Shown in pieces: positions 1 through 22,041 of a stretch of DNA of 64,000 nt. The stretch comes from a virus (taxonomy: Duplodnaviria > Caudoviricetes). The position numbers and the translations under genes are program-made. The notes under the pieces are model-generated. The model had not been told where the DNA came from. It saw nothing but the letters and a program-made list of their open reading frames with translations, and made no database searches. The stretch covers positions 1-64,000 of IMG/VR virus record IMGVR_UViG_3300032218_004357. One strand, given 5' to 3'. The first letter of the stretch is position 1. Every line of letters starts with the position of its first letter.

Positions 1-285
1 CTCGCCGATACGAGCGAGGGCGACGCGTGCGCCACCGAGTTCGCAGTCGGTACCGAGTTTGTCGGTCCACTTTCCTGCGCGTCGCGTGCCGGGTGGGCAG
101 CGGAAGTGCGGAAGTTTGTCGCCATCGAAAAAGAACTCGACCGGCGCCACCTTCACCGACAGCCCGATCGCCGCCGTCTGGTTCCACGTCTTCATCTGCA
201 GCGTCGCAAAATCAATGTTGCCGCGCGATTGTCCAATCATCGGCTTTGCCGATGAGGCAGCAACATCAACGCTTGACATATCCAT
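1..285 (-). CDS. Partial head-module protein running off the left end (MDMSSVDV...FRCPPGTRRAGKWTDKLGTDC...)
   Basis: Translated by hand: ATG at 285, no stop to position 1; follows the stop of 296-628; shares a CPxG...C motif with the 625-2745 protein. Not in the ORF track because it lacks a stop. Confidence 0.7.
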   Translation of the reverse strand, partial: MDMSSVDVAASSAKPMIGQSRGNIDFATLQMKTWNQTAAIGLSVKVAPVEFFFDGDKLPHFRCPPGTRRAGKWTDKLGTDCELGGARVALARIGE

Positions 286-295
286 CACAGACCGA

Positions 296-628
296 TCACG
301 ACGTGCTGTAGAAATCGTATTGCTTTTTGCGAATGTTGCCCACCATAACATCTGCAGGGTTCGGTTCGTTAGCCGCCGCCAACTCGTCAAACTCCTGCTT
401 CAACGCCGGAGTCAACGTCTTTGGCCCGTCAACGACCAGATGCCCTCCGAGAGACGACGTCAACTGCTCGATCTTTCGACGGTCAGCCGCAGGCAGAGCA
501 TCCGCCCACTTCTCCCACTCCTTGCCCTGACGGCTCACACCGATCGTGTCGACACCATCGGCATGCTCAATCAGAACGGCGAACCGTTGCGTCGAATCGA
601 AATGGGTGACGATCGCGTACTTGTTCAC
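296..628 (-). CDS. Hypothetical protein, head operon (110 aa)
   Basis: Start overlaps the stop of the upstream gene; normal composition. Confidence 0.65.
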   Translation of the reverse strand: MNKYAIVTHFDSTQRFAVLIEHADGVDTIGVSRQGKEWEKWADALPAADRRKIEQLTSSLGGHLVVDGPKTLTPALKQEFDELAAANEPNPADVMVGNIRKKQYDFYSTS

Positions 629-2745
629 GACTGCTCCATCGCCCCAATGATCCGCAACAACGTCGTCTTGCTGTTTCGCAGTTGATCAACCTGTGACTTC
701 ACCAAGTCGCGCATGATCTCAAGGTGCCGCTTTTCAACGTCCGACAACCCACCGTCCAAACCGAGACGCGTGACGTAGTTGTCCCAATCGAACTCGCTCG
801 CATCCTTCAGTAGCGTGTCGTACATGATGGCGATCGACTTACGCACGTTCCGATCGGGCGTCTCGGTGAATGCCCGAACCCACCCGTTCTTCTGCGGGTT
901 GCTGAACACCTTCTCCGGATCACGGATCACCGCAGCGATGGCCTTCGCGTCCTTGGGGACCGTCCCCGACCCGGGCGACGGCACCACCGTGAGGGAGTGC
1001 CCATCCTGCACGATCGCCAACCCAGCCGGGTTCCGATCAGACACCCCGAACATGAAGTCCACCAACGACGTCCGCAGCAGGTCGGCCGTCGGCACGTCAG
1101 TCAAACCGCGATCGGCCGCCAACTTCCCGTCCTCGACCGCTGCCGTCGCCGCCTGCGAGACTACCGCCTGCGTGGACGTGCCGTCACCCGCAAGGCGCGT
1201 GAGCGGAGCGTCAATACCCATGCCGCGCTGAAAGTCCGCCAGCATCTTCTCGCTCAACGCTGCCGTACCCGACCGCTCGATGCGAACGTACTGCTCCCCG
1301 TTCTTGCGAGTGATCAACGTCCGCCCGCCACCAAGGTCGATGTTGTCGACCGTCGGCGACTTCTTGAGCGCCGCATCGAGGAACCGACCCGGAACGCGAT
1401 CGAGGGGCTCCCCGTCCTGCACGGCCTTGCGGGCTGCCGCCAGCGAGGTGACGGCATCGTTTGCCGCAGCATCGGGTGCCTGCGCGACCGTGGCGATCTC
1501 TTTCCACCCCTGCGCCGAGTCCATCCGACCGGGCGCCGCATCCGCGTAGTACGCGAGGTACACCCAGCGCGGCACCGTCCGCTTCTCGTCGTTACGCGCG
1601 ATCTGCACCAACTCGTTCGGCCGATCGATGTTGTTGAACACCTCGGAGTACTGCAACTTGCCCTTCGACGCCTCGACGAGACGCTGAATGGCCCCTGCGC
1701 CCTCCTCGGTGTTCGGCGCCCGGCGGATCGTGCCCCACGTGCGACCGATCTGCGACAACTCGCCCTTCGGGTTCCCAACGTAATCGAGCCGGAATTCGTG
1801 ACCACCCGGAGCGACCAGTCGCACCGACGAGACGCCCGCCCGGAACAACCCGACCTCGTTGAACCCCACCTGCTTCGGGCTGCCGATCTTGGCCACGATC
1901 GTGCCGCCAGCCATGTCGACGTTCCGCACCTGCGATGCCAGTCGTTCCACGTTGACGCGCGCATCAAGGGCAACGCCGTCACGCCGGATCAGGCGCACGA
2001 AATCGCCACGAGCCGCTCCAGCCGCCGTGATCGCCGACGTGACGGCGGCCTCCACCTTGCGCGGGCTGGCCGCACCCACGTGAGGGACGTTCGCCATGCG
2101 CGTCAACGTCGCGCTGATCTTCGGGCCCTGAGCGCTCCCGATGCGTCCGGCTTCGATGAGTTGCGCAGTTCGACCAGCCGTCCGCTTCGGCACAACGCCG
2201 ATCGTGCGCGTCACCCTCACGGCTTGCTGCACTGCCCGACTGCCCGGCGCCTCAGCCCCCGGCACATCGAACAACTGCTGACCGCAGTTGTTGAGGAGCC
2301 GATTCGAGAAGCGACCACCGTACTGGTACCCGGTCGGGCATCGCATGATCTGCTCGGCCCCACGACCGATCGCCGAACCGAGTCCGCCTCCGCCGCCGAT
2401 CCGCATCGCACCGCCACCGCCACCGGGCGTCGCCGCCCGGTACACGGTCGATCGGCCCGGGCTCCGCACGCGCGCCAAGTCGCCGGGCGTCGTGTACGAC
2501 ACGCCACTCTCGACGATTCGCACCAACGGGTCGTTCGACGACACCAACCCGCTCTTGATGTGGTCGGATCGCCACTCCTCGACGATCGCGCAGAGTACGA
2601 ACGTCTTCGCCGTGATCTCATCCGGATCCCCGTCGTACGGGCGCGTGAGGATCTCCGTCAACGACGAAGTCGGCGCAACGAAGTACGTCCTCACTGGCTC
2701 GTCAGTTGTAGCGTTGTCGTCGGGGACTCCGAGCGAAGACGCCAT
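625..2745 (-). CDS. Large head-module protein (706 aa) with a possible degenerate HipA/PI3K-like kinase domain at the C-terminus
   Basis: Co-oriented in the head operon; SEKMLADFQRGMGIDAP and LVDFMFGVSDRNP resemble HipA/PI3-4K motifs, but the downstream N and DxG residues are not evident. Confidence 0.6.
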   Translation of the reverse strand: MASSLGVPDDNATTDEPVRTYFVAPTSSLTEILTRPYDGDPDEITAKTFVLCAIVEEWRSDHIKSGLVSSNDPLVRIVESGVSYTTPGDLARVRSPGRSTVYRAATPGGGGGAMRIGGGGGLGSAIGRGAEQIMRCPTGYQYGGRFSNRLLNNCGQQLFDVPGAEAPGSRAVQQAVRVTRTIGVVPKRTAGRTAQLIEAGRIGSAQGPKISATLTRMANVPHVGAASPRKVEAAVTSAITAAGAARGDFVRLIRRDGVALDARVNVERLASQVRNVDMAGGTIVAKIGSPKQVGFNEVGLFRAGVSSVRLVAPGGHEFRLDYVGNPKGELSQIGRTWGTIRRAPNTEEGAGAIQRLVEASKGKLQYSEVFNNIDRPNELVQIARNDEKRTVPRWVYLAYYADAAPGRMDSAQGWKEIATVAQAPDAAANDAVTSLAAARKAVQDGEPLDRVPGRFLDAALKKSPTVDNIDLGGGRTLITRKNGEQYVRIERSGTAALSEKMLADFQRGMGIDAPLTRLAGDGTSTQAVVSQAATAAVEDGKLAADRGLTDVPTADLLRTSLVDFMFGVSDRNPAGLAIVQDGHSLTVVPSPGSGTVPKDAKAIAAVIRDPEKVFSNPQKNGWVRAFTETPDRNVRKSIAIMYDTLLKDASEFDWDNYVTRLGLDGGLSDVEKRHLEIMRDLVKSQVDQLRNSKTTLLRIIGAMEQS

Positions 2746-2763
2746 CGAGTGCTCCCCGGGGTG

Positions 2764-3957
2764 CTACTGCTCGTCGGTGACGGTGGTGTCCTGCTCGGCC
2801 TCGAGGAGTTGGAACTCCATGAGCGCCGCCTCGAACGCCGAGTCCTCGGCCGACTTCGCGTGGACGCCCTCGAGCGCCTCCATCTCGTCGGCGGAGATCT
2901 CGTACATGTCGTGACCGAGCACGGTGCCGCTCGACGGGTCGACGTACACGTCGTACGAGTTACCGTCGATGCCCTTGACCTCGATCGAGTACACGTCGTA
3001 CCCCTCATAGGAGGCCGCACCGACGGCGAGCGCCTTGCCCTCGACGATGCTGGTCGCGGCGTCGGTCGCCTCCTCGGCAGTGATGACCGGACCGTCTGCG
3101 ATCATGTCCTCGTCGACGCGTACGAGCCCTTGGAACTGGCCGTCGCCGCTGTAGTGAACCTCGAAGAGGCCGTCCTTGCGCTCGCAGGTGACGAGGAACC
3201 GGTCGGCGACCTCGCTGTACCCGGAGTCGACGACGGTGCCCCAGACCTTGGCGGTCACGGCCTCCATCGCTGCGAGGTCGAGGAGGCCCTTCGAGCCGAT
3301 GCAGCCGCCCGTGCAGTCGGCGCACGGACCGGTCTCACCGGAGAACACCTCTTGCTCGACCATGCAGACGAACGCGCCGCCGTCGATGTCGGCCGATTTC
3401 GTGCCGATCTCCTCGAGGTACACGCGTCGCACGGCGTCGATCTCGTGCTCGTCGACGATGTCGAGACGGCCGATCTCGCCAGCGACGAGCCCGTCCTCGA
3501 ACTCGAAGACCTCGTCAGCGTCGTCGCCCTTCGTCTGCACGGCCATCGCTCCGCACTTCACGCAGACCTTGCCGCCCGGCTTGTAGCCGCAGTCGCCGGT
3601 CGCTAGGCCCTTGGCGCACTTCGTGACCTCACCGTCGCCGGAGATCTTCACGATCCCCTTGGCGCCCATCGGCTCCTTGTCGGCGGCGGGCTGGGCGGCC
3701 TCGTTGTCGTCGACGTTCTTCGTACCCCACGTCTGCGGGATCATGTCCTCGGCGTCGAGTTCGGTCGCCCGCTTGATGATGTGATCCTTGGCGGCCTCGG
3801 GATCCTTGGCGCGCCCAAACGCCGCGATGGCGTTCTTGAGGTCGTCGACGTTTTTGATCGGGAACGACCCGTCGGGGAGAGCGTCGCCGCTGTCCGCCAA
3901 CTTGCGTCGGTCACTGGCCGAGTACATGCGCTTGGCTTCGATGTTGTCCGGGCCCAT
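2764..3957 (-). CDS. Acidic head-module protein (397 aa) with a C-terminal PepSY-like domain
   Basis: ITAEEATDAA...VYSIEVKGIDGNSYDVYVDPSSGTVL matches the PepSY pattern; several CxxC pairs; SD-like GAGAGG upstream. Confidence 0.7.
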   Translation of the reverse strand: MGPDNIEAKRMYSASDRRKLADSGDALPDGSFPIKNVDDLKNAIAAFGRAKDPEAAKDHIIKRATELDAEDMIPQTWGTKNVDDNEAAQPAADKEPMGAKGIVKISGDGEVTKCAKGLATGDCGYKPGGKVCVKCGAMAVQTKGDDADEVFEFEDGLVAGEIGRLDIVDEHEIDAVRRVYLEEIGTKSADIDGGAFVCMVEQEVFSGETGPCADCTGGCIGSKGLLDLAAMEAVTAKVWGTVVDSGYSEVADRFLVTCERKDGLFEVHYSGDGQFQGLVRVDEDMIADGPVITAEEATDAATSIVEGKALAVGAASYEGYDVYSIEVKGIDGNSYDVYVDPSSGTVLGHDMYEISADEMEALEGVHAKSAEDSAFEAALMEFQLLEAEQDTTVTDEQ

Positions 3958-3987
3958 GACTACCTCTCTGATGGTGGGCGATCGAAT

Positions 3988-4016
3988 AACGATAACACTT
4001 GATTAGTGTTTTCGTT
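3988..4016. repeat. Intergenic inverted repeat AACGATAACACT-TGATT-AGTGTTTTCGTT (operator or hairpin)
   Basis: 12-bp arms with 1 mismatch, in an AT-rich gap between two minus-strand genes. Confidence 0.7.
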
Positions 4017-4029
4017 GATTGTTCTGGTG

Positions 4030-5253
4030 TTAGAGCATTTCGTCGTCGTACAAGGCGAGGACGTTGTCGAGGGCGATCCACGCGTCGGGATCGGCGTACC
4101 CAAGCCCCTTTACGAGGATGCCTTCCTCGTCGATTTCGCTGTCGAGGCCGTGGTACTCGAGGACCGGATCGACGAGGCTCTTGATCTCGAACAACTCGTC
4201 GACCGTCGCCGGAATGAAGAGCGAGTCCTCATCCCAGAGGTCGTCCTCGTCGTAGTACGCCTTCTGCTGCAACTCGGCGTTGCCGGTCTCGTCGAGGAGC
4301 GCCGTCAAGGCTTCGATCGCATCCTTGATCCGCTTGATCGATCGAGCGGACAGCGGCTTGCCGACCTTCACCTCGATGTCGAGGTCGTCGAGCAGATCCT
4401 TCATGCCGCTGCACGTGCCCCCGCAACCACATCCGCAGTCGCCGCCCATCGAGGCATCGCCGCCGCACGCACCGCCACACCCGCAGCCTCCCTCACCGGG
4501 CGGAGCCCACTCCGGAATCGGGTGCGCCGCGTACTGGCCCGCCTCGTCGAACCCGACGTGCTCCCAGTTCTTGTGGTCCTGAATGTGGTTGATCCAGTTC
4601 GGCTCCTCGGCCATGAACCCCTTGAGCGCCCAGACGCACGACTTCTGCAACTCGTCGTCGTCCATCTGCTCGGCGGCCCACTCCTCAGGGTGCATGCCGT
4701 CCACGTGGTCCTCGGCGGGAAGATCCTCCATCCCCGCTGGACCGTGCGACGTGTGCCCCTCCGGGTCGACCTCCATCAGGCCCTTCTTGCCGGGGAGGCC
4801 GGGCAACTTGCCGCCGGGCGCACGCATGTCGATCCTGCCAGTTCGCACCGACTCGAGACGCTTCGCCCATTCAGAGTCAGTCCAGATCGAACCGTTGACG
4901 ATCCCCTTCAACTTCTTCCGGCAGTTCTTCATGCCCGGGTGGTGGCAGCCCTCGTTCGGCCACAGACCCGTCGTCTCGTGGTGCAACCACGCGCAGAGCG
5001 GCTCGAGCGGGTACAACTCCGGGTGATCGGCGAGGATGACACGGCACCGACGGAACCCGCCCTCGCGCCGCATGATCGGACGCCAGTAGCGGAGCAACTT
5101 CTCGAGGTTGCCACGTCGCGGTCCGTACCCGTGGAGGATGTCGCCCGTAACGCGTTCCTGCGGGAGGACGTCGGGGACCTCGTTCGACGGGTTGAGCGGG
5201 ATCTCGGTCGGCGAAAGTGACGCCTTGATGTCCAGATCGTCAAACTCGGTCAT
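4030..5253 (-). CDS. Head-module protein (407 aa) with Cys/His motif and Cys-Gly-rich segment
   Basis: GGFRRC...LCAWLHHETTGLWPNEGCHH and GCGCGGACGG...DCGCGCGGTC; start overlaps the protease stop. Confidence 0.75.
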   Translation of the reverse strand: MTEFDDLDIKASLSPTEIPLNPSNEVPDVLPQERVTGDILHGYGPRRGNLEKLLRYWRPIMRREGGFRRCRVILADHPELYPLEPLCAWLHHETTGLWPNEGCHHPGMKNCRKKLKGIVNGSIWTDSEWAKRLESVRTGRIDMRAPGGKLPGLPGKKGLMEVDPEGHTSHGPAGMEDLPAEDHVDGMHPEEWAAEQMDDDELQKSCVWALKGFMAEEPNWINHIQDHKNWEHVGFDEAGQYAAHPIPEWAPPGEGGCGCGGACGGDASMGGDCGCGCGGTCSGMKDLLDDLDIEVKVGKPLSARSIKRIKDAIEALTALLDETGNAELQQKAYYDEDDLWDEDSLFIPATVDELFEIKSLVDPVLEYHGLDSEIDEEGILVKGLGYADPDAWIALDNVLALYDDEML

Positions 5254-8200
5254 TGTTCGTCCTTGCTTTCGAGTTCGGCGACCTCGTCGAAGGTCAACGC
5301 CGGATCGTCGTACGACTTGTGCGGCGTGCGTACGTTGCTGCTGCCACTTCGCACCATTTGGCCCCTACGGGCGACGGGAGCATCCGCCGCACCGGGAGCC
5401 CAGCGAGTGTTCTCGCCTTCCGCTGCACGCGTCGCCGGAGAGAACTGGCTCCCGGGCTTCACACTCACCGCTCCACGATGGTTGCGCGGCCCGACCGGGC
5501 CCATCGCGCCGCGTCGACCCGCAGCGGGTCGAAGACCGCGCCCGTCGCTGGTGGGCTCCCACCCGCGAATCTGCTCGCGCGCAACCGCACGATCGAGACG
5601 CTCATTCCGCTGGTTCGCTTGCGTGCTCTTCGGACCAGAGTCGGTATCGCGCGAGGCCAGATAGTCACGACGCGCCTGCAACCGTTGGTTGTGTTTGTCG
5701 GCGCGTCGCTGCCACGACGTGTTCTGGTTATCGGCGCCACTCTTCTTGGGGGCGGGCATCTCGTACTTCGTACCATCGAAGATGCGACCGTTGTTGTTAC
5801 CGTCGCGCATCTGAGTCACGTCGCGACCGGCCGGACCGGCACCTCCGCCCGTCGTACCGGACTCGCGCGAGTTGACGGTACCCATCTGATTACCGATGGT
5901 CTTCTCGTCGATCTCGTCCCAATCGATCGCGTTCCACGCATCGAGTAGTTCGTCGAACGATTTCACGCGTCCGTTGCGGTCGTACACGATCGTCGTGCCG
6001 TTTCGATCGCGACGCGACTGGAGCGGTCCTCGGCCCGAACGCGGGCCAGCCGGACCGGCTGCGCGTCGAGCCACTTGCTGCTCGCGCACTCGCTGGTTCT
6101 GCTCTGCGGCACCGAGGTAGCGGCCGACTTGCCGCATCTCTTCGCCCGCTCGCCGCTCGCCGCTCGGCGTCGACCCACGTTGGTTGATCTCGGCGCGTCG
6201 AGCGTTGAGTCGGTTGACCGCACGCTGTTGACGCTGCTGCGAGCGCATGCGAGCAACGGTCGGGCTGGGCTCCGGTCCACGCGGTCCGGCGGGCGTACCG
6301 TTACGAGCACGGTCGTTCATCTCTGCTGCGCGCAGGTATCGGCCGATGTCTTGCATTTCGCGTCCGGCGGCACGCTCTCCTTGTGGTGAGGATCCGCGCT
6401 GGTTGATTTGGCGACGGCGTTCCTGCAACTGACGGATGGCGGCATCCGCTTCTGGGCTGCGACCGCCCGGCCCGCGCGGGCCCGACGGTCCTTCTCCGTC
6501 GCGTCCACGTCCGGGAATCATCGCGCCATTGTCGTAGGGGATGCCGTTGCGACGCTTCGGACCCTGCGGGCCAGCCGGACCCGCCGGACCCTGCCCCCGA
6601 CGGAACACCTGCGCACCACGCTTGCCGTTGCCGTCCACACGGTACGTCGCGCCACCATCGGTGACGTAGCGGCGCATCTGCTGGTTCGGCTTCTTCTCGT
6701 CCTGCGCACGCTGCCGCTTTGGCGCGGGCATCTCGTACTTCGTGCCGTCGAAGATGCGACCGTTGTTGTTACCGTCACGAATCTTCGTGACGTCGCGACC
6801 CGCCGGACCACCGGACCCGCTGCCCGCCGGACCTGCCGGACCCTGCGGGCCCGCCGGACTCGGCTTGCGCGAGTCGACGGTACCCATCTGGTTGCCGATG
6901 GTCTTCTCTTCGACCCACGCGATCTCGTCGTACGTTGCAGCCGGATCGAGGAGCACTTTCATGGCCGTGTCGATCGATGACGCCCAGTAGCCGTCGTCTT
7001 CGTCGTCGTCCATCTTGTCGTCGTCGAACCGCACGACGGTCTCCACGTCGACTTCCATCGGGTCGCCGAACATGTAACGCGTCCCATCGAAGTGGTACGG
7101 CACGAACATCGTGTCGATGCCGTCAGCGTCCCCATCGTCGGAACGCTTGTCGAACACGGCGAAGTTGTCGGTCGCAAGGCGCAGCGTGATCGGCCCCCCG
7201 ACAAGATCGACGAGGGCGCTCGGCAGTCCGGCGCGCTCGTCGTCGTACACCGACGAGTTGTCGTGACCGCTCCCGTGCGCGGCGCTGAACGCCTCGAGGG
7301 GCAGGTAGTGATGGTTCTGGCCGTCGGCGATACGCACCATGTCCGCGTTGTCGAGGCTCATCAGCACTCGACGGCGCAGCGGCCCGTAGGACATGTTGTG
7401 GTCCTCGCGGCTCATGTCCGGACCCCAGCACTTCGTTTTGGCGCTCGTCACCGCGTCGTTGACGACCTTCTTCATGTGGCCTTCGCCGCGCGTACCGATC
7501 GCCAGCCACTTGATTTGAGCGACGACGCCCGGCAACAAGAAGTCGCCCTTGTGGCGAGCAATCCACGCCTCGCGCAGTTCGAGGGCCTTGATCTGGTCCT
7601 CGGTGCGGGCCTTGCCGCCCTGCGCTGCGATCTTCGTGAGGATCTCGTACTGATCGTCGCCTTTGATATTGCCGCCCTTGTCCCAAATGTCGGGATGCTG
7701 GGACTTGATGCGCTCGGCGAAAGCCCGGTCGAACATCGGCCACTCGGACTTGTCGAACGAGTCGATTCGATCGCCACCTTCGGCGGCCTTGATCGAGATA
7801 GTGCCGGTCAACTGGTTGGCGCCGTGGAGGACGGGCGACACTTCGAAGAGTTCGACCTCCTGCAGGACGTTCGCTTGCCGGTCTGGGTCGTAGGTCGCCT
7901 TGATCGTCTTGTAGCCAATCGACCACTCTTGATCCTCGCCGAAAAACGCAACGGAGTGGAATGCCTCGCGACCGCGCTCGCTCTTGAGGTTGAACTGGAC
8001 CCGGGCGAGCAGTCCTCCGACGCCTGCGGCCTTCATCTTGGCGGGGAGTCGGGGGTCGTTGGTCGACACCTCGTCGATGGCGAGGACTTTGCCGATGGGT
8101 TGGTTCCAGTCGTGGCCCCAGACGACGCGTGGCTTGCGGCGTCGGAGGCTGCCGTCGAACGCACCGGGGGCAACGATGTCGCCGACGGAGTCCTTGTTGC

Positions 8201-8318
8201 CGACAGCGGCGACGAAGCACTCGACGATGCCCTGCGCTTCGTCGACGTTCAGTTGCCCGGAGATGGCTTTGAAGTCGAGGTCTCCGGATCCAAGAACGTC
8301 GTCGTAGAATTCTGTCAT
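5250..8318 (-). CDS. HK97-type prohead (capsid maturation) protease with a long low-complexity C-terminal extension (1022 aa)
   Basis: N-terminal GNKDSVGDIV, VWGHDWNQPIGK, WSIGY and LFEVSPVLHGAN are typical of the caudoviral prohead protease; gene lies directly after the portal. Confidence 0.85.
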   Translation of the reverse strand: MTEFYDDVLGSGDLDFKAISGQLNVDEAQGIVECFVAAVGNKDSVGDIVAPGAFDGSLRRRKPRVVWGHDWNQPIGKVLAIDEVSTNDPRLPAKMKAAGVGGLLARVQFNLKSERGREAFHSVAFFGEDQEWSIGYKTIKATYDPDRQANVLQEVELFEVSPVLHGANQLTGTISIKAAEGGDRIDSFDKSEWPMFDRAFAERIKSQHPDIWDKGGNIKGDDQYEILTKIAAQGGKARTEDQIKALELREAWIARHKGDFLLPGVVAQIKWLAIGTRGEGHMKKVVNDAVTSAKTKCWGPDMSREDHNMSYGPLRRRVLMSLDNADMVRIADGQNHHYLPLEAFSAAHGSGHDNSSVYDDERAGLPSALVDLVGGPITLRLATDNFAVFDKRSDDGDADGIDTMFVPYHFDGTRYMFGDPMEVDVETVVRFDDDKMDDDEDDGYWASSIDTAMKVLLDPAATYDEIAWVEEKTIGNQMGTVDSRKPSPAGPQGPAGPAGSGSGGPAGRDVTKIRDGNNNGRIFDGTKYEMPAPKRQRAQDEKKPNQQMRRYVTDGGATYRVDGNGKRGAQVFRRGQGPAGPAGPQGPKRRNGIPYDNGAMIPGRGRDGEGPSGPRGPGGRSPEADAAIRQLQERRRQINQRGSSPQGERAAGREMQDIGRYLRAAEMNDRARNGTPAGPRGPEPSPTVARMRSQQRQQRAVNRLNARRAEINQRGSTPSGERRAGEEMRQVGRYLGAAEQNQRVREQQVARRAAGPAGPRSGRGPLQSRRDRNGTTIVYDRNGRVKSFDELLDAWNAIDWDEIDEKTIGNQMGTVNSRESGTTGGGAGPAGRDVTQMRDGNNNGRIFDGTKYEMPAPKKSGADNQNTSWQRRADKHNQRLQARRDYLASRDTDSGPKSTQANQRNERLDRAVAREQIRGWEPTSDGRGLRPAAGRRGAMGPVGPRNHRGAVSVKPGSQFSPATRAAEGENTRWAPGAADAPVARRGQMVRSGSSNVRTPHKSYDDPALTFDEVAELESKDEQ
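5745..5906 (-). repeat. Copy 2 of an intragenic duplication (EKTIGNQMGTV...RDGNNNGRIFDGTKYEMPAPK)
   Basis: Near-identical peptide and DNA to 6718-6908. Confidence 0.9.
6718..6908 (-). repeat. Copy 1 of an intragenic duplication (EKTIGNQMGTV...RDGNNNGRIFDGTKYEMPAPK)
   Basis: Near-identical peptide and DNA to 5745-5906. Confidence 0.9.
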
Positions 8319-8324
8319 ACCGTG

Positions 8325-8330
8325 AAGTTA
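8325..8330 (-). promoter_or_regulatory. Putative -10 element TAACTT, 6 nt before the protease ATG (leaderless-type)
   Basis: TAnnnT hexamer in an AT-rich gap; no SD before the ATG. Confidence 0.4.
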
Positions 8331-8357
8331 CAGTATTTTTCGATGGATCAGGGGAAG

Positions 8358-8388
8358 GTTTACAACAAGTAAGTTGCTTGTTGTAAAC
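8358..8388. repeat. 31-bp near-perfect palindrome GTTTACAACAAGTAA-G-TTGCTTGTTGTAAAC between portal and protease
   Basis: 15-bp arms with 1 mismatch, read directly. Confidence 0.85.
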
Positions 8389-10631
8389 TACTTCTTCTCC
8401 CAGCGCAAGCGGCAACGGCAGTTAATGGTCAACTCGGGAGGTGCCAGCGGGTCGCCCGGGAACCGCAACATCTGCTTGCCAACGACAAAGCCCTCGTCAA
8501 ACTGAACAGTATTGCCGTCAAGTATGCGGTGAGCACTTCGAACGCGCGAGTCATTCATCGACACCCACGTTTTGGTTAGCGTGCCGTTGCCGCTGCCGTC
8601 CATGCGCTGGTGCGCCTGTTCGGCCGAGATGTAGGTCCCCGCGTTGTAGGCAGTCTGTGCCTCGTGCTCTGCGATGGTCCGACGGCGCGAGTTGAGGAGG
8701 TGGAGGAACGTAGCGACAACGGCCGCTTTGAGAAGCAGGTGCCGATCCTCATCGGTACCTGCACTAAACGCCTGTGCCGTCTGGATAGCCGTCGCAATCT
8801 CGGCACGGGTCGTCTCGTTGGTCTTCTGAACTCGAGCGACCTGATCGTCAAGATATTGCTGCACCGCAGGGTCGTTGAGATCCACCGATTCGCCGGTCTG
8901 CTCGGCGGCGAGGTTGGCCGCTTCCGTCACGATTCCGGCGATCACCGGTCGGACGTCCTCGTCCATCTGCTTATTCCAGACGTCGAGGTCGAACACCGCT
9001 GCAGCCGTCAGCGTCCCCGCCGCCAAGGCCTTGCGCGACTTCGCACCCAACGCCTTCTCGGTGACGACCCGCTGCTGCCGCTCGAACAGTCGCTCCAGCG
9101 ATCGGTCGAGGATCTCGGTCCAGCGGTCGGTCGTCGCCTCAGCCTTGACGTCCCACTCGTCGGGCTCCTTGGTCTGGATGCCGAACACGGCGTCCTTGAA
9201 CTGCATCGCTCCCGTCGGAGCCGACGCCTGTTGAGCGGGTCCGGGTTCCGCCGGAGGTGCCCCCGCATCGGCGGCAGCGGGCGCAGGACCGGTTGCAGAG
9301 GGTGCAGCGTTGTCCCCGGCGGGCGGTGCCCCATCTGCGGGCGGAGCCTCGGGCGGCACGGGCGGCGCTCCGGGTGCTGCGTTCGCGTCCGGTGGCGTCG
9401 GAACTTCCAGTTTCTTCTTCGTGTTGCCGATCGGCGTGAGGTTCGGGTTCGCAAGCATCGAGTCAGCCAACTCGGACTCGACCGTCTTGCGGCCAGCCGC
9501 CTCCCGGTACTCGTTGGCGGTGGCGAGACCCTGCTGAAACTCATTCATCACGTACTGGATGCGTTCCTGCTTCGCCATGATCAGGACCGGCACCGAACTC
9601 GTGTCGAACTCGAAGTACAGGTTGTCGTCGAGGGCGTCCATGCCGCGCGCAAGCATCTCGAGGTGCGGCGGGATCGTCTCGAGCCAGAAGACCCGCAGTT
9701 CCTCGGATGCGTTGGCGTAGGTGCGCCCGGCGGCGTTGCCGACGACCGACTCGGGGACGCCGAATGCTGCGAGGATCTCCTCTTTGGTGATCTGCCGCAT
9801 CTCCGTGTAGGAGGCGTCGCGCGGGCTGGCCGAGGTGTCGACGAAGTCGACGCCCGCCTCGGATGCGATCACGGAGACTGCGCCAGCCCGGTTGATGCCG
9901 CCACGGAACCGGGAGCGCAACTCGTCCTTGTCGTCGTTGTCGATCTCGCCGCGCACGACGACGAGCCCGCCCGGGCGGCCGTCGTTGAGGAGGAAGTTGC
10001 GGTTGTAGTACTTCGCGAGGTTCTCGATTTCGATTGCGACGCCCGCAGCCTCCATCGGCGTCATCGAGAGGTACGGGTCAAGGGGATGCGGATGCTTGAA
10101 CCAGAGGACCTCGCTGGGCTTGAGGATCTGCTTCGGCTGGCCCGGCAGGATGACCTCGAATCCGGCGACGTAGTTCTTCGGATCGGGGATCGGCGCCGTG
10201 TACTGCGGGGGCAGGAGGTGGAGCGCCACCGGCTGGCCGCCCTTCCCTCGGATGATCTCCACGAAGGCTCCCCGGCTGCTCGTCAGCAACTGGGCTGAGA
10301 GGCGGTACCGGAACGCGAACGAGTCCTCGCCCGGGTTGGAGCGTCGGTTCAGGAGATCGAGCACGTCGGCCTTGACGTCGAGTTCTCCCGACGGAAGGTT
10401 GTCTTTCCGGCCGACGACGGGGAGGCGGGCCACGTTCCCGGCAATGGCATCAATGCACCGGTAGACCCACGTGATCTTCTTGACGCCGTCGCGGTAGGCG
10501 CGATCGATGTCCCACGAGTCTTTGTAGCCGCGATTGAGCGAGCCCGGGTTGGTCGAGATGGGGGCGCCGAGGGGTACGGACTTTACTCCCTCGTTATCAA
10601 GCCGTTTTGTATCGCGACTATTCCACGCCAC
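8388..10631 (-). CDS. Portal protein (HK97-like) fused to a MuF / SPP1 gp7-like head morphogenesis domain (747 aa)
   Basis: WVYRCIDAIAGNVARLP, NFLLNDGRPGG and EEILAAFGVP are portal motifs; P/A-rich linker; C-terminal KTW...DSRVRSAH...FPGDP...INCRC is the MuF signature. Confidence 0.9.
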   Translation of the reverse strand: MAWNSRDTKRLDNEGVKSVPLGAPISTNPGSLNRGYKDSWDIDRAYRDGVKKITWVYRCIDAIAGNVARLPVVGRKDNLPSGELDVKADVLDLLNRRSNPGEDSFAFRYRLSAQLLTSSRGAFVEIIRGKGGQPVALHLLPPQYTAPIPDPKNYVAGFEVILPGQPKQILKPSEVLWFKHPHPLDPYLSMTPMEAAGVAIEIENLAKYYNRNFLLNDGRPGGLVVVRGEIDNDDKDELRSRFRGGINRAGAVSVIASEAGVDFVDTSASPRDASYTEMRQITKEEILAAFGVPESVVGNAAGRTYANASEELRVFWLETIPPHLEMLARGMDALDDNLYFEFDTSSVPVLIMAKQERIQYVMNEFQQGLATANEYREAAGRKTVESELADSMLANPNLTPIGNTKKKLEVPTPPDANAAPGAPPVPPEAPPADGAPPAGDNAAPSATGPAPAAADAGAPPAEPGPAQQASAPTGAMQFKDAVFGIQTKEPDEWDVKAEATTDRWTEILDRSLERLFERQQRVVTEKALGAKSRKALAAGTLTAAAVFDLDVWNKQMDEDVRPVIAGIVTEAANLAAEQTGESVDLNDPAVQQYLDDQVARVQKTNETTRAEIATAIQTAQAFSAGTDEDRHLLLKAAVVATFLHLLNSRRRTIAEHEAQTAYNAGTYISAEQAHQRMDGSGNGTLTKTWVSMNDSRVRSAHRILDGNTVQFDEGFVVGKQMLRFPGDPLAPPELTINCRCRLRWEKK

Positions 10632-10887: not shown

Positions 10888-12195
10888 GTGACCGACTGGG
10901 ATGAAATCCTTCGGTACCTCCGACCGCGCGAGGTGCCGTATTGTCCAGAGAAACCGAGTATCCCACAACAGGTGTTCCTGCGGACGAACGCTATCGAAGC
11001 GCTGTTCGGAGGCGCGGCCGGTGGTGGTAAGTCGTCCGCTCTCCTGATGGCGGCGATGCAGTACATCGACGTTCCCAACTACTCGGCGATGTTGTTTCGT
11101 CGCACGCTCGCTGACCTCACCCTTCCCGGCGCGCTCATGGACCGGTTCCGGGATTGGACTGCCCACTACGAGGAAATCCGGTTCAATCAAAACACCTACA
11201 CGGCGGTGTTTCCCTCCGGAGCCCGCATCACGTTCGGATACCTCAACAACAAGGACGACTACCTCCGCTACAAGGGTGTGGAAGCCCAGTTCGTCGGCAT
11301 GGACGAGGTCACCGAAATTCGGGAATCCGATTACCGGTACTTGTTCTCCCGCCTCCGCCGTCCGGCCAGCGGCCCACTCGCTCAGGTGCCGCTGCGCATG
11401 CGCTGCGCCTCGAACCCGGCGCCCAACTGGGTTCGGCAACGGTTCCTCGTCGAGGGTCCGTCGAAGGGGCGGATCTTCGTGCCGTCGCGCCTCACCGACA
11501 ACCCGGGCGTCGACGCCAACTCCTACCGTCGAGCCCTCCAAGAGTTGGACCCGATCGAGCGGGCCCGGCTCGAGATGGGTGACTGGTGGGCGACCAGCCT
11601 TGGTTCGCTGTTCGAACGAACCAACTTCGTGCAGATCGATCCCACCGACGTTCCGGACCTTGTGGACCCGCCGCCGCGCGCCGTGCGGTTCTGGGACCTT
11701 GCGGCCACCGAGGTGTCCGAACGCAACCCGGACCCGGACTGGACCGTTGGCACCCTGATGATGGTTCATAACGGCATCTATTACGTCCTCGACGTCAAGC
11801 GCATTCGCGACCGTGGGGACAAGGTCGAAGCCCTCATCGCTCAGACCGCCGCCGAAGACGGCATCGGAGTGGCGATTCGCGTCGAGCAGGAGCCCGGTTC
11901 AGCGGGTAAGGCCCTCATCGATCAATACGCCCGGTACATCGTGCCCGGGTACGACTTTATGGGCGAGCGCGCCACGGGCGACAAGGTGAGCCGATCCCGC
12001 CCGTTCGCGTCGGCGGTCGCCAACGGGAACGTACGGGTGCTGCGCGCGTCGTGGCTCACCGACTGGCTCGACGAACTCGCCTCCTTCCCCGAAGCGGCGG
12101 CGCACGACGACCAAGTCGACTCGGCGGTCGGAGCATTCTCGTTCCTGTCCGGTCTTGGACACGGACGGCGAGCCCGTGCTAGCCTCATCGTCTGA
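10888..12195 (+). CDS. terL: Terminase large subunit
   Basis: Walker A GGAAGGGKS, Walker B GMDEV, coupling motif ASNP, nuclease motifs FWDLAAT and HDDQVDS. Confidence 0.93.
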   Translation: MTDWDEILRYLRPREVPYCPEKPSIPQQVFLRTNAIEALFGGAAGGGKSSALLMAAMQYIDVPNYSAMLFRRTLADLTLPGALMDRFRDWTAHYEEIRFNQNTYTAVFPSGARITFGYLNNKDDYLRYKGVEAQFVGMDEVTEIRESDYRYLFSRLRRPASGPLAQVPLRMRCASNPAPNWVRQRFLVEGPSKGRIFVPSRLTDNPGVDANSYRRALQELDPIERARLEMGDWWATSLGSLFERTNFVQIDPTDVPDLVDPPPRAVRFWDLAATEVSERNPDPDWTVGTLMMVHNGIYYVLDVKRIRDRGDKVEALIAQTAAEDGIGVAIRVEQEPGSAGKALIDQYARYIVPGYDFMGERATGDKVSRSRPFASAVANGNVRVLRASWLTDWLDELASFPEAAAHDDQVDSAVGAFSFLSGLGHGRRARASLIV

Positions 12196-18494: not shown

Positions 18495-19036
18495 TGCCGA
18501 TGCTGCCAGCCGAAGAGCGTTCCGCAATGGCGATTGCGTATCACGCTGCTGCGCTGTCGCCGGATCCGTCGACACAGAACGGCGCGTACGTCATCAACAT
18601 GATGGACGGTTCGCTGCGTGGCGCCATCGGTCGCAACATGCCCCTACGCGGCAATGCGGTGGACTGGACCAGCGACGCCAAAAATCATACGATCCATCAC
18701 GCCGAGGAAGCCGCAATCCTTGCAGCGGCAGCGCACGGGATTCCGACGTTCGGCGCAACCCTGTTTAGTCCGTGGATCGCCTGCACCCGATGCGCTCGAG
18801 CGATCGTGGGGGCTCGTATCGGGCGCGTTGTTGGACATCGAGATCTTGTTCGACAGGCTGCGCTGATCAATCCCAAGTGGACGCCAGAGATCGCGCGAGG
18901 TCTGGAAATGATCGTAAACGCCAACATTGAGATTTCATGGCTTCACGGCAGCATCAACGGATCTACCATTCGTCACGCTGGAAATCGATGGAATCCGATG
19001 TTGTTGAAACTGAACGAGGAAAACTATCGTGACTGA
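18491..19036 (+). CDS. dCMP deaminase family protein
   Basis: SPDPSTQNGA, HAEEAAI and PWIACTRCARAI zinc-binding motifs. Confidence 0.85.
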   Translation: MMPMLPAEERSAMAIAYHAAALSPDPSTQNGAYVINMMDGSLRGAIGRNMPLRGNAVDWTSDAKNHTIHHAEEAAILAAAAHGIPTFGATLFSPWIACTRCARAIVGARIGRVVGHRDLVRQAALINPKWTPEIARGLEMIVNANIEISWLHGSINGSTIRHAGNRWNPMLLKLNEENYRD

Positions 19037-19835
19037 CAAGATCCACGAATCACTGCGCGATCTTGCGTTGCCGCTCGACGCACTCCAGCCGCTACCCGGG
19101 AACCCACGCATCGGCAACGTCGACGCCATCGCCGCGTCGTACGACGAGTTCGGACAGTTGAAGCCCGTCGTCGTTCGGCCCAACGGCGACGGCACCTACG
19201 TCATCATCGCCGGAAACCATCAGGTCGAAGCCTGTAAGCGCCTCGGATGGACGCACATCGCTGCGGTCCAGATGACCGACGACAACGAACGCAGCGTCGC
19301 GTTCGCTCTGGTCGACAACCGAGTCAGCGACCTTGGGCGTACCGATCAGGCGTTGCTTTACGACATGCTGAACGACGTCGTCGAGGTGTACCCGATGCTC
19401 TTCGATGCCGTCGGGTGGGATGACTTTGAAATGTCGTCGTTCGACGCGCAGATGGAATCCGTCACTGAGGTGTCGAAGGGGACGGCAGCCGGGTACGTGC
19501 CGCCTGTGCTGGTGTCGCGTCCGGGCGACCCGATGCCTGCGGCTCCGGCATTGCCGCCGGTCGAGATCGACGAAGACGCCGATGAGGATCAGAAGGCGCG
19601 GTTTGTGGCTCCGGCACAGATTGATCAGCGGGCGGCTGCGGTGGGGGGCGCATCGGTGACTGGGCAGGTGGCGACGCAGCGCACCTCCTTCCAGTACACG
19701 ATCGTGTTCGACGACGCGGATCAGATGAAGCAGTGGTGGGATTTCCTGCGGTGGTTGCGTGGTGATGTAGGGTATGAGGGCGAGACGATCGCCGCCAAGT
19801 TGACGGCATTCATTGACGCTCATAGCAACGTCTAG
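19029..19835 (+). CDS. ParB/Srx N-terminal domain protein
   Basis: LQPLPGNPR...IAASYDEFGQLKPVVV...IIAGNH...LVDNR. Confidence 0.85.
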   Translation: MTDKIHESLRDLALPLDALQPLPGNPRIGNVDAIAASYDEFGQLKPVVVRPNGDGTYVIIAGNHQVEACKRLGWTHIAAVQMTDDNERSVAFALVDNRVSDLGRTDQALLYDMLNDVVEVYPMLFDAVGWDDFEMSSFDAQMESVTEVSKGTAAGYVPPVLVSRPGDPMPAAPALPPVEIDEDADEDQKARFVAPAQIDQRAAAVGGASVTGQVATQRTSFQYTIVFDDADQMKQWWDFLRWLRGDVGYEGETIAAKLTAFIDAHSNV

Positions 19836-19841
19836 TTATTT

Positions 19842-20282
19842 ATGTACGCAGAGAAATGGATTGGCGTGGATTACGCATACGAAACTATGTCGCTTAGTGC
19901 GTTCATCGAGCGGTTGTACGACTACTCGATCGGTAAGGCAGAGCCGCGTCGGATCGCGCACGTGGCGGCGGAGCATCTTGTTGCGCAGCGTGCGGAGATT
20001 GAGCGGCTCACCGCTGAGATCGAGCGACTGACCGAAGAACGCGACTACTTGCGGCACGAACTCAATAACGAAACCGACCGATACATGGCGATGAAGGAAA
20101 CCAATAGCGTCCACATTGCCGAGATTGAGCGGTTGCGTGCTCTCATCACCGAATGGGCAGAAGCCGACAACGGTGTGACCGCCGCTGCCGATGCCCGCCC
20201 GTTCGTTCGCGAACCGTACGACGTAGCCATTGAGCGGTGCGACAGGGCATACGACGAGTTGCGTAAGGAGGCAGGACGATGA
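19842..20282 (+). CDS. Hypothetical coiled-coil protein with three AEIERL repeats
   Basis: Repeats visible in protein and DNA; 5' part has lower GC. Confidence 0.6.
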   Translation: MYAEKWIGVDYAYETMSLSAFIERLYDYSIGKAEPRRIAHVAAEHLVAQRAEIERLTAEIERLTEERDYLRHELNNETDRYMAMKETNSVHIAEIERLRALITEWAEADNGVTAAADARPFVREPYDVAIERCDRAYDELRKEAGR

Positions 20283-21454
20283 CCCGCCAACGCATGTTCC
20301 TCGACATGTCCTGCGTCGATGCCGCCCGTGAACGCATCCGCCACGTCTACGACACGTTCGACACCGTCTGCGTCCAGTTCTCCGGCGGCAAGGACAGCAC
20401 CGCTGCGCTCTACCTCGCCAAAGAGATCCACGAGGAACGCGGCCTTGGGCCCGTCAAGGCCATCTTCCGTGACGAGGAGATGGTCTCTCCCCTCGTCATC
20501 AAGTTTCTCGAAGAAGTCCGACAGTACGACTGGGTCGACATGGAGTGGTACTGCCTCCCCCAAGGATCCAACATCTGGGTGCTCGGGCGGCGCGAGTACG
20601 TGCTCATGTGGTCGCCGCAACGCGCCGCCGAAGGGCGGCTCGTGCGCGAGATGCCCGACTGGGCGTATCGCGCTGAACACTTTGGCCTACCTCCCGACCA
20701 GTCGCTTCCCGAGTCCATCGACTACTACACGATGCAGGGCAAGCAGGGTCGGGTCGCGTTCATCACGGGCGTGCGCGCCAACGAGTCCATGATTCGCTAC
20801 CGATCGTGCGTGCAGAAACTCCACGAGAACTACATCGTCACCCCGTTCCGGATGAAGAAATCCATTCCGTTGAAGTTCGCGAAGATCATCTACGACTGGA
20901 CCAGTGGCGACGTGATGAAGTACCTCGTCGAGGAGCACAACGCGCCCTACTGCGAGTACTACGACTTGGCTGCGATCTCCGGGTCCAACACGCGCGTCGG
21001 GATTCCCCTTCACTCCGTTGCGATCCGCCGCATCGGCGACGTTCTTGCTACCGAGCCGGAGTTCTACGACCGCCTTTACGAGTGCTTCCCCCAAATCGAC
21101 GCGCAGCGTCACCTGTGGTCGCAGGTCGACGTCGATCGGCTCATCGATCAGTACGCAACCGACTGGGATGGGGTTCGTGATTTCATCGACGAGCACATCC
21201 TGACGCCGGGTCTCCACCTCAACGCAATGAAGTTTGCGAACGAGTACCGCAAGAAGTGGGCGAAAGACGAGTTCTCGTACCCGATCGAATGGCTCGTTCG
21301 CCAACTGCTGCTCGGGGAGTTCGCGGTCACGTCGGCGACGCCGGTCGGTCCGAAGACTCGAGCCCACACGCGCCGTCTTGCAGCGCAAGCCGTGCTGGAC
21401 GAGCAAGCCCAGATGGACGCCAGCAACCTCGACGCACAGGATGATTTCCGATGA
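20279..21454 (+). CDS. ibrA: PAPS-reductase-like PP-loop protein (IbrA/YbdN family)
   Basis: N-terminus DAARERIRHVYDTFD, PP-loop FSGGKDS, TGVRANES, IYDW...DV and RVG-PLH. Confidence 0.8.
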   Translation: MTRQRMFLDMSCVDAARERIRHVYDTFDTVCVQFSGGKDSTAALYLAKEIHEERGLGPVKAIFRDEEMVSPLVIKFLEEVRQYDWVDMEWYCLPQGSNIWVLGRREYVLMWSPQRAAEGRLVREMPDWAYRAEHFGLPPDQSLPESIDYYTMQGKQGRVAFITGVRANESMIRYRSCVQKLHENYIVTPFRMKKSIPLKFAKIIYDWTSGDVMKYLVEEHNAPYCEYYDLAAISGSNTRVGIPLHSVAIRRIGDVLATEPEFYDRLYECFPQIDAQRHLWSQVDVDRLIDQYATDWDGVRDFIDEHILTPGLHLNAMKFANEYRKKWAKDEFSYPIEWLVRQLLLGEFAVTSATPVGPKTRAHTRRLAAQAVLDEQAQMDASNLDAQDDFR

Positions 21455-22041
21455 TCACGAACGCCAACATCGTCACCGTTCCTTACGAGGCGCTTCGTCC
21501 GGCGCCGTGGCGCAGCACCTACACGTTTCGCCCAGAGGTGCGGTTGTTGACGCAGTCGCTGCGTGACCTCGGTTGGATCGTGCCGATTGTTGCTCGCGAG
21601 GGGACGGGCGAGATTATCGACGGGTTCACCCGGTGGGTGGTGGCGCAGAACGACAAGGCGATCGCGAAGCGCGATGAGCGGCTCTGTCCGGTCGTGTTCG
21701 TGGCCTGCGACGAGGTCGACGCCATGATCCACCATGTTCGATTGAACCGGGCACGGGGGCAGATGCTTGCCTATCCGTTGTCCAAGTTGGTGTCCCTCGC
21801 CATCGGCAGCGGCAAGTACAGCGACGACACGCTTCAGAGCGCGCTGGGCATGACGCGCGACGAGTTCGAAGTGCTGCAAATGCGAGAAATCCTTGTCAAC
21901 AAGACCGTCAAGGAGCACACGTACTCCAAGGCGTGGGTGCCCATCGAGGCCCCTCCAGTCGGCACCATCATCGACGGCAGCACCGTCAGCGAGATCGCTC
22001 ACGACATCAACTTCGAGAAGCCGCCCAACGCCGACCGCTAA
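21451..22041 (+). CDS. ibrB: ParB-like protein (IbrB/YbdM family)
   Basis: GWIVPIV, EIIDGF and VRLNRARG; translationally coupled to the IbrA-like gene. Confidence 0.75.
   Translation: MITNANIVTVPYEALRPAPWRSTYTFRPEVRLLTQSLRDLGWIVPIVAREGTGEIIDGFTRWVVAQNDKAIAKRDERLCPVVFVACDEVDAMIHHVRLNRARGQMLAYPLSKLVSLAIGSGKYSDDTLQSALGMTRDEFEVLQMREILVNKTVKEHTYSKAWVPIEAPPVGTIIDGSTVSEIAHDINFEKPPNADR

Follow-up and report, generated by a model that had tools for sequence, protein, structure and literature searches.

In phage HK97 the prohead protease gp4 cuts the capsid protein gp5 after Lys103, directly before Ser-Leu-Gly-Ser. In lambda C/Nu3 and P2 gpO, which are protease-scaffold fusions or nested genes, an assembly domain is located C-terminal to the prohead protease, which is released by self-cleavage. 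In T4, with its capsid targeting sequence (CTS) and its protease gp21, and in phiKZ and SPN3US, the prohead protease removes N-terminal propeptides of many head-internal proteins at a recurring motif, the leaders being short with about 10 amino acids (aa) (PMC10052503, PMC9024508). The polyvalent proteins (Iyer et al, 2017) are giant multi-domain proteins encoded beside virion genes that are predicted to be packaged and to be processed by an in-built peptidase; rare assemblin-like (prohead) peptidases among them lie “always at the C termini” and are predicted to process the protein (PMC5512222). Here, we analysed the head operon in a 64,000-nucleotide (nt) stretch of virus DNA, bases 1-64000 of a linear IMG/VR virus contig of 72,079 bp with 63% G+C (hereafter the window). 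We lean towards the reading, based on the predicted proteins and their homologues, that this part of a large uncultured tailed phage encodes internal head proteins as strings of modules, which a protease of the S78 (HK97 gp4-type) family would cut after lysines at the module junctions.

The operon is a single minus-strand unit running from position 10631 to the contig start, and all its genes described below lie on that strand. It comprises, in this order, a portal-MuF fusion of 747 aa (8388..10631), the 1022-aa protease, a 407-aa protein (4030..5253), a 397-aa protein (2764..3957), a 706-aa protein (625..2745), a translationally coupled 110-aa protein (296..628) and, truncated by the contig end, another large head protein, of whose gene the 5' part is present (1..285). 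According to the CheckV estimate, the contig represents about half a genome, and a search with PF05065 found no capsid gene on it. An earlier reading of the bare sequence (the original prediction) had quoted Lys-containing peptides from the large proteins of this operon, all of which were found in the window translations.

The strongest evidence for the polyprotein reading is that modules fuse, split and move between open reading frames (ORFs) exactly at Lys sites. One ORF of 660-1190 aa encodes both the protease and the 407-aa domain in 77 of 79 relatives; the two are split in the window and in one relative, L080, only. Both splits, of which that in L080 is independent, are located 10-13 residues upstream of a phi-K↓A(P) junction that is at least 90% conserved (phi, hydrophobic residue; arrow, candidate cut). 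In L080, the N-terminal domain of the 407-aa protein has been relocated to the front of the homologue of the 397-aa protein, while its C-terminal part (..K↓VGR..) is still found in the protease ORF. A module with the sequence ALPDGSFPI sits at the C-terminus behind LALK↓[RA]MY in relatives and is N-terminal, behind IEAK↓RMY, in the 397-aa protein of the window, the moved module having retained the phi-x-K↓RMY border. A profile search of 1.84 billion representatives revealed 217 proteins, and the N-domain of the 407-aa protein often opens giant proteins of 1.4-4.6 thousand aa. Every protein opened by this domain, stand-alone or giant, retains a short leader M-x(4-15)-phi-K↓AP, and conserved leaders ending phi-K↓A span 6-20 aa in general. 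The giants continue with modules resembling the 706-aa protein and the next gene, joined via LEAK↓A, IRVK↓R and MDVK↓AP, and the order of these modules is that of the window genes. The window itself presents a mixed state, with the protease and 407-aa genes apart and portal and MuF fused. Among broader relatives, 57 portal-only and 61 MuF-only ORFs compare with 15 fused ones, and some stand-alone MuF ORFs begin with MPTWEEK↓T, matching WDVK496↓A of the window fusion.

The motif is enriched in the operon, as expected if the recurring Lys sites are more than background: [ILVMFY]K[AS] occurs 16 times in five head proteins versus 6.0±2.4 expected (z 4.1), and 22 times versus 20.1 (z 0.4) in 33 other proteins of the contig. 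The more specific [DE]x-phi-K[AS] was seen five times in the head proteins with 0.9 expected, and nine relatives, mutually non-independent, deviate in the same direction (z 0.9-3.3 for the operon, -2.0 to 0.1 for the flanks). In alignments of homologues from which duplicates had been removed, about 13 of the 17 listed sites proved to be conserved, namely K17, K177, K472, K786 and K806 of the protease, K10 and K296 of the 407-aa protein, the K9-equivalent, K187 and K368 of the 397-aa protein, K47 and K64 of the 706-aa protein and K496 of the portal fusion; K143 of the 397-aa protein, K17 of the portal and K358 of the 407-aa protein are weak or doubtful, and K1001 of the protease is weaker. At ten candidate sites the homologues exhibit 444 Lys and 0 Arg, a count that is partly circular because the sites were picked by Lys conservation. 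At the same ten sites the residue following the Lys (P1') is Ala, Ser, Val, Thr or Gly in 90%, compared with 35% at other conserved basic columns.

The protease opens with a leader (residues 1-17, 8268..8318) ending DLDFK17↓A, with K17 present in 52 of 52 sequences, followed by the S78 core (residues 18-177, 7788..8267) ending ISIK177↓AA. Residues 28-173 match PF04586 with 46.1 bits (cut-off 21), and the protein also matches phrog_80 (E 1e-32); a PDB sequence search with the core gave no match at E <= 1. H69 (WGHDW), S133 (WSIGY) and K177 are invariant in the alignment of 52 sequences, and from knowledge of the S78 family we take H69 and S133 to be the catalytic pair. The gene is located directly 3' of the portal gene and, in complete relatives, upstream of a capsid gene on the same strand. 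Lys is found in 100% of homologues at both K17 and K177, and directly past K177 the sequence turns variable. Close relatives retain TEFY..DDLQFK↓A at the leader and the cultured actinophages DalanDe and Cantare retain NLQYK↓A/G. In both of these actinophages, the protease being internal to a 1633-aa ORF in DalanDe and stand-alone in Cantare, the core is preceded by YK↓A/G and followed by VK↓S/E.

The N-termini of the protease and of the 407-aa protein had been described as almost alike (MTEFYDD...DLDFK↓AI and MTEFDDLDIK↓AS). This likeness is real, with a score of 26 versus 14.6±3.3 for shuffles (p about 0.005), but modest, ranking 5th of 741 pairs of N-termini on the contig. Nearly every synonymous site differs in the DNA, and therefore the shared N-termini are not a recent copy; we rejected a recent duplication as origin of the MTEF start.

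Residues 178-442 of the protease (6993..7787) comprise a DUF6321-like region, the family PF19846 having been found in one relative (L022), and a conserved domain of about 75 aa (362-442), which in relatives comes before the junction to the 407-aa-like domain. This domain matches all fused relatives, and beyond residue 442 there is no match: the 580-aa tail (residues 443-1022, 5250..6992) is lineage-specific and has no counterpart among the 79 relatives. It alternates between acidic spacers (443-472, 787-806 and 1002-1022; isoelectric point, pI, about 4) and basic blocks rich in Arg, Gly and Pro (473-786, net +33, and 807-1001, net +16; pI about 11.5), the charge borders coinciding exactly with four sites of the original prediction, K472↓T, K786↓S, K806↓T and K1001↓S. 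A similar basic region is present in a 970-aa protein of a complete relative. The tail sites were assessed in five closer relatives only: K472 is kept in 4 of 4 (acidic..K↓AIG), K786 in 4 of 5 (phi-K↓S-F/Y-D-D) and K806 in 3 of 4, and K1001, the weaker site, recurs merely as a similar phi-K↓S with an acidic tail. At the last of these sites the window protein reads PHK↓SYDDPALTF, a repeat of the spacer found behind K786 in closer relatives. Two internal duplications were detected in the tail (scores 267 and 160 versus 49±9 and 43±8 for shuffles). The duplicated peptides had been thought to start exactly after a Lys, which did not hold: the first repeat unit, that of the TIGN repeat (267 versus 48.7±9.4 for shuffles), begins at least 17 residues upstream of it.

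Acidic helical tails following HK↓S or HAK↓S end both the protease (5250-5312) and the 397-aa protein (2767-2853), both finish with D-E-Q, and the protease of relative P0162 terminates in the same kind of tail. These tails may be encapsidation tags. A C-terminal tail of the LMEFEML type was rejected as a general signal, being restricted to the 397-aa family and found loosely on the window protease. In many relatives a thioredoxin-like gene with a WCGPC motif is located between the portal and protease genes (L022:8245-8583, L007:8583-8903); it is absent from the window. With CxCGC clusters being abundant in the cargo linkers, this gene may point to a redox or metal link.

The 407-aa protein, whose ATG overlaps the protease stop codon (ATGA), begins with a 10-aa leader (MTEFDDLDIK10↓A), continues with a Cys/His-rich N-domain (31-141) and a middle domain (185-254), and in its C-terminal half contains a Cys-rich linker with K285 and K296, a helix, a linker with K331 and an alpha/beta domain (345-407). 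IMG/VR contains 332 relatives of it with about 40% identity, and the contigs encoding them mostly have 46-49% G+C. No Pfam family was assigned, Foldseek gave no match to PDB at E <= 0.001, and an ESM Atlas search returned the same phage families only. In homologues, the junction K-A is conserved in at least 90%, K285 and K296 are invariant, and K331 is found in 94%. AlphaFold2 (AF2) models have a mean predicted local distance difference test (pLDDT) score of about 62 and consist of confident domains parted by low-confidence stretches, which in this protein are residues 1-31, 142-184, 255-301 and 324-336 and include K10, K285, K296 and K331. In the N-domain (4831-5163) Cys70, Cys87, His91/92, Cys103, His104/105 and Cys111 are invariant, a set that looks like a metal site; the domain is also found in stand-alone proteins of 60-200 aa and opening giant proteins. 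Invariant C-G-C-G clusters are located 15-40 residues upstream of junction lysines in the 407-aa family (4351-4491), fused relatives have similar clusters (KPKxCxCGC) ahead of the protease/407-aa junction, and in the 397-aa family K187 is followed by a cluster of four Cys.

The 397-aa protein comprises a leader ending IEAK9↓RMY, the ALPDGSFPI module (10-80), a Cys-ribbon domain (100-144), a linker with K187↓S, beta domains containing PepSY (224-365; PF03413, E 3e-7), HAK368↓S and the acidic helical tail. K187 is invariant in homologues, K368 is conserved in 90%, and the K9-equivalent is well conserved. Low-pLDDT linkers are 1-33, 47-98, 145-174, 190-223 and 366-371, and K9, K143, K187 and K368 lie in or border low-confidence segments. 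Most sites of the two folded proteins are thus in low-confidence linkers, and K358 of the 407-aa protein is located in a confident helix.

The 706-aa protein, which belongs to no known family, has a predicted N-terminal propeptide (ITAK47↓T, HIK64↓S), an RCPxGT...C domain with the motif at about residue 135, and a long C-terminal part. Two of its 27 Lys are conserved, K47 (89%) and K64 (100%), and one clade has an insert of about 170 aa between them. The RCPxGT domain occurs in this protein, in the next window gene and in three paralogue families, and is always found behind one or two phi-K sites; the partial gene at 1..285, a homologue of a 2154-aa protein in L080, encodes LQMK↓T and LSVK↓V ahead of its RCPPGT domain. 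The C-terminal part of the 706-aa protein contains a DRNPAG stretch (625-1200), and two large relatives show sub-threshold PI3/PI4-kinase matches (E 6e-4 and 2e-3; L054:14197-16674 and L080:13321-19782); this part may be a degenerate kinase-like cargo domain. The 110-aa gene is coupled to the 706-aa gene via a GTGA overlap, and in relatives a small homologue of the 110-aa protein is encoded ahead of each large RCPxGT protein or, in the paralogues of 907-984 aa, fused to the N-terminus. The 110-aa protein may be a chaperone or adaptor.

The portal-MuF ORF (PF04860, E 4e-55; PF04233, E 5e-12; phrog_2662, E 5e-105) consists of a portal domain (residues 55-379), a Pro/Ala-rich linker at about 410-475 and the MuF domain (647-742). 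Its junction candidate, WDVK496↓AE at nt 9144-9146, is Lys in 98% of homologues, with a small P1' residue in 91%. Directly 3' of the portal stop codon, a perfect 12-bp inverted repeat (gtttacaacaag / cttgttgtaaac) is located at 8350-8385, separated from the protease start by an A/T-rich stretch; the repeat resembles a terminator or regulatory hairpin inside the operon.

Complete relatives have genomes of 110-145 kb, one of them being 128.6 kb long with terminal repeats. In complete relatives the strand of the protease gene also carries the capsid gene, about 17 kb and roughly ten genes further downstream. The capsid protein matches HK97 gp5 (E 2e-59). Its delta-like N-terminal domain, a coiled coil, comprises about 97 aa and ends with SAK↓SLGQ, and it is exactly at this border that the homology to the solved capsid chain 9lbm_F begins.

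The original prediction that modular polyproteins are cut after Lys by the prohead protease is partly supported, by the conserved sites, the lack of Arg, the location of most sites in predicted flexible linkers, the fusion, fission and transposition at sites, the kept leaders and the HK97-like capsid of relatives, with three or four of the listed sites remaining unsupported. From these data we infer cleavage, its specificity for Lys, packaging and any targeting role that the leaders may have. The usual junction would consist of acidic residues, a hydrophobic residue, Lys and then Ala, Ser, Gly or Val, placed in a flexible linker. Precursors would co-assemble with portal and protease into the procapsid, where the S78 protease would cut after the junction lysines, freeing itself first (K17, K177) and then separating the modules and trimming the leaders (10 aa in the 407-aa, 9 aa in the 397-aa and 47-64 aa in the 706-aa protein). 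In the window phage, the Arg-rich basic blocks would be cut loose from the acidic spacers that mask them. Modules may have been fused, split and moved at junctions because cleavage would make ORF borders irrelevant.

The lysines might instead be ordinary structural or interaction residues (domain-edge strands, helix caps, DNA or capsid contacts), with only the capsid and perhaps the protease being processed, the modules having been shuffled at linkers like ordinary domains and the two short acidic N-terminal peptides resembling each other by coincidence. We consider this explanation unlikely, yet a number of observations favour it and weigh against processed polyproteins. K17 and K177 are kept in distant actinophage proteases, with the domain stand-alone or internal, and could simply be structural edges of the S78 domain; K358 (FEIK358↓SL) is conserved though buried in a confidently modelled helix and is probably structural; the N-terminal likeness is just the fifth best; and an unbiased scan of isolated conserved columns, too strict a test, found Lys in 4 of 23 (2 without double counting). 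Further points against processed polyproteins are that the enriched motif is loose, was chosen with the sites already in view and matches K96, K112 and K140 inside the protease fold, that portal K17 (GVK17) and K143 (VQTK143) of the 397-aa protein are Lys in just 63% and 56% of homologues, that no relatives of the 407-aa protein were found among 50,697 cultured phage records, and that the link to HK97 rests on relatives at about 40-55% identity because the window contig is devoid of a capsid gene. Structural lysines, however, leave unexplained that phi-K leaders are kept upstream of modules that have turned N-terminal, that Lys is not replaced by Arg in disordered linkers, and that the transposed module has kept its K↓RMY border.

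A quite improbable explanation, in our view, is that the phi-K-A/S peptides are short linear binding motifs, mediating capsid targeting or protease docking via the delta domain or the protease, or that they are cut by a host trypsin-like protease. Duda is said to have reported in 2013 that the HK97 protease uses a short terminal peptide for encapsidation, T4 internal proteins use short terminal encapsidation peptides according to the literature on P1 and on the T4 CTS, and the protease tail and the 397-aa protein share similar acidic ends after HK↓S or HAK↓S. Binding motifs are hard to reconcile with sites at both module ends and within giant polyproteins, where a targeting role is difficult to picture, and with the HK97-like Lys site at the border between delta domain and mature capsid protein in relatives. 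The split between the protease and 407-aa genes might also be a frameshift of the metagenome assembly, the true gene being fused and the shared N-terminus an artefact. The fused state in 77 of 79 loci and the window frames being one base apart at the ATGA overlap would fit such an error, which we nevertheless regard as very improbable: the two are independently split in L080 and six broader loci, a representative of 400 aa is likewise stand-alone, the acidic protease tail resembles that of P0162, which also terminates there, and an ATGA overlap is a typical coupled stop-start.

Extending the reading of Lys-cut module strings beyond the window, we can tentatively imagine, although we are doubtful of it as a whole, a “lysine junction code” in widespread uncultured phages of 110-145 kb with HK97-like capsids. 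Any module with acidic-x-hydrophobic-Lys↓small linkers on its flanks would enter the capsid within a polyprotein, from which the S78 protease would release it, and cargo genes could freely fuse, split and move. The M-x(5-15)-phi-K↓A leaders would serve as combined targeting and cleavage signals. In the window phage, the Arg-rich blocks, masked by the acidic spacers, would be set free as DNA-condensing peptides, which would be a counterpart of adenovirus core-protein maturation in a tailed phage.

Outside the operon, the terminase large subunit (10888-12195) is encoded divergently from the head genes. A PAPS-reductase-like gene (phrog_2302, E 3e-79) is located between two ParB-like genes (19029-22041), near an exonuclease, a glycosyltransferase and a RuvC-like resolvase.

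If the polyprotein reading is true, it would provide a cleavage and loading rule for an HK97-type protease with many substrates; proteases with many substrates have so far been documented only among the unrelated gp21-type enzymes of T4 and giant phages. It would also explain the evolution by fusion and fission of a “dark” block of head genes of 15-20 kb in a large group of environmental phages (332 IMG/VR loci, 217 distant representatives), and the short leader peptides might be used as tags with which foreign proteins are loaded into HK97-like capsids. As a practical warning, standard trypsin proteomics is blind to Lys-specific processing.

The statement that no comparable system has been described was too strong given the internal proteins of T4 with their CTS, the ejection proteins of phiKZ and SPN3US, the Dar proteins of P1, themselves a comparable system, and the polyvalent proteins. 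Literature searches on the cleavage sites of T5 pb11 and on the processing of MuF/protease fusions gave nothing usable. With lambda C/Nu3 and P2 gpO the locus shares the arrangement that a helical part, here the C-terminal part of the 407-aa protein beginning K296↓(A/V)GR..., usually follows the protease, whereas those systems use other protease families and are without additional cargo modules. The giant “capsid maturation protease” of actinophages (Gordonia phage DalanDe gp27, 1633 aa) belongs to the same protease clade (37-40% identity) and likewise has the protease inside a long ORF, where YK↓A precedes the core and VK↓S follows it; in contrast to the locus described here, the actinophage protease fusions have other partner domains, are without the 407-aa domain and are directly followed by the capsid gene.

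Like polyvalent proteins, the operon combines several unrelated domains per polypeptide beside virion genes, in relatives as single proteins of 1.4-4.6 thousand aa and in the window partly split into genes. It differs in its N-terminal peptidase and in its readable junction motif, no junction motif being described in Iyer et al (2017). None of the effector domains of that study (ART, MPTase, nucleases and others) was found, Pfam giving only PepSY, MuF, S78, DUF6321 and the sub-threshold PI3/4-kinase-like matches in relatives. As in T4, phiKZ and SPN3US, many internal head proteins have short leaders ending at a recurring site, here a candidate one, but those systems, which have been demonstrated experimentally, employ a gp21-type protease that cuts after Glu (x-x-E), whereas the protease here is of the S78 family and has Lys at the end of its candidate sites. 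For those phages, no shuffling of modules between ORFs has been described. The S78 protease (PF04586) is shared with HK97, and the capsid protein of relatives is a close homologue of gp5 with a delta-like domain ending Lys↓Ser-Leu-Gly. Whereas HK97 has a small protease with one substrate, the protease here heads a polyprotein of 660-1600 aa, many proteins have candidate sites, and in relatives about 17 kb of extra head genes part the protease from the capsid gene.

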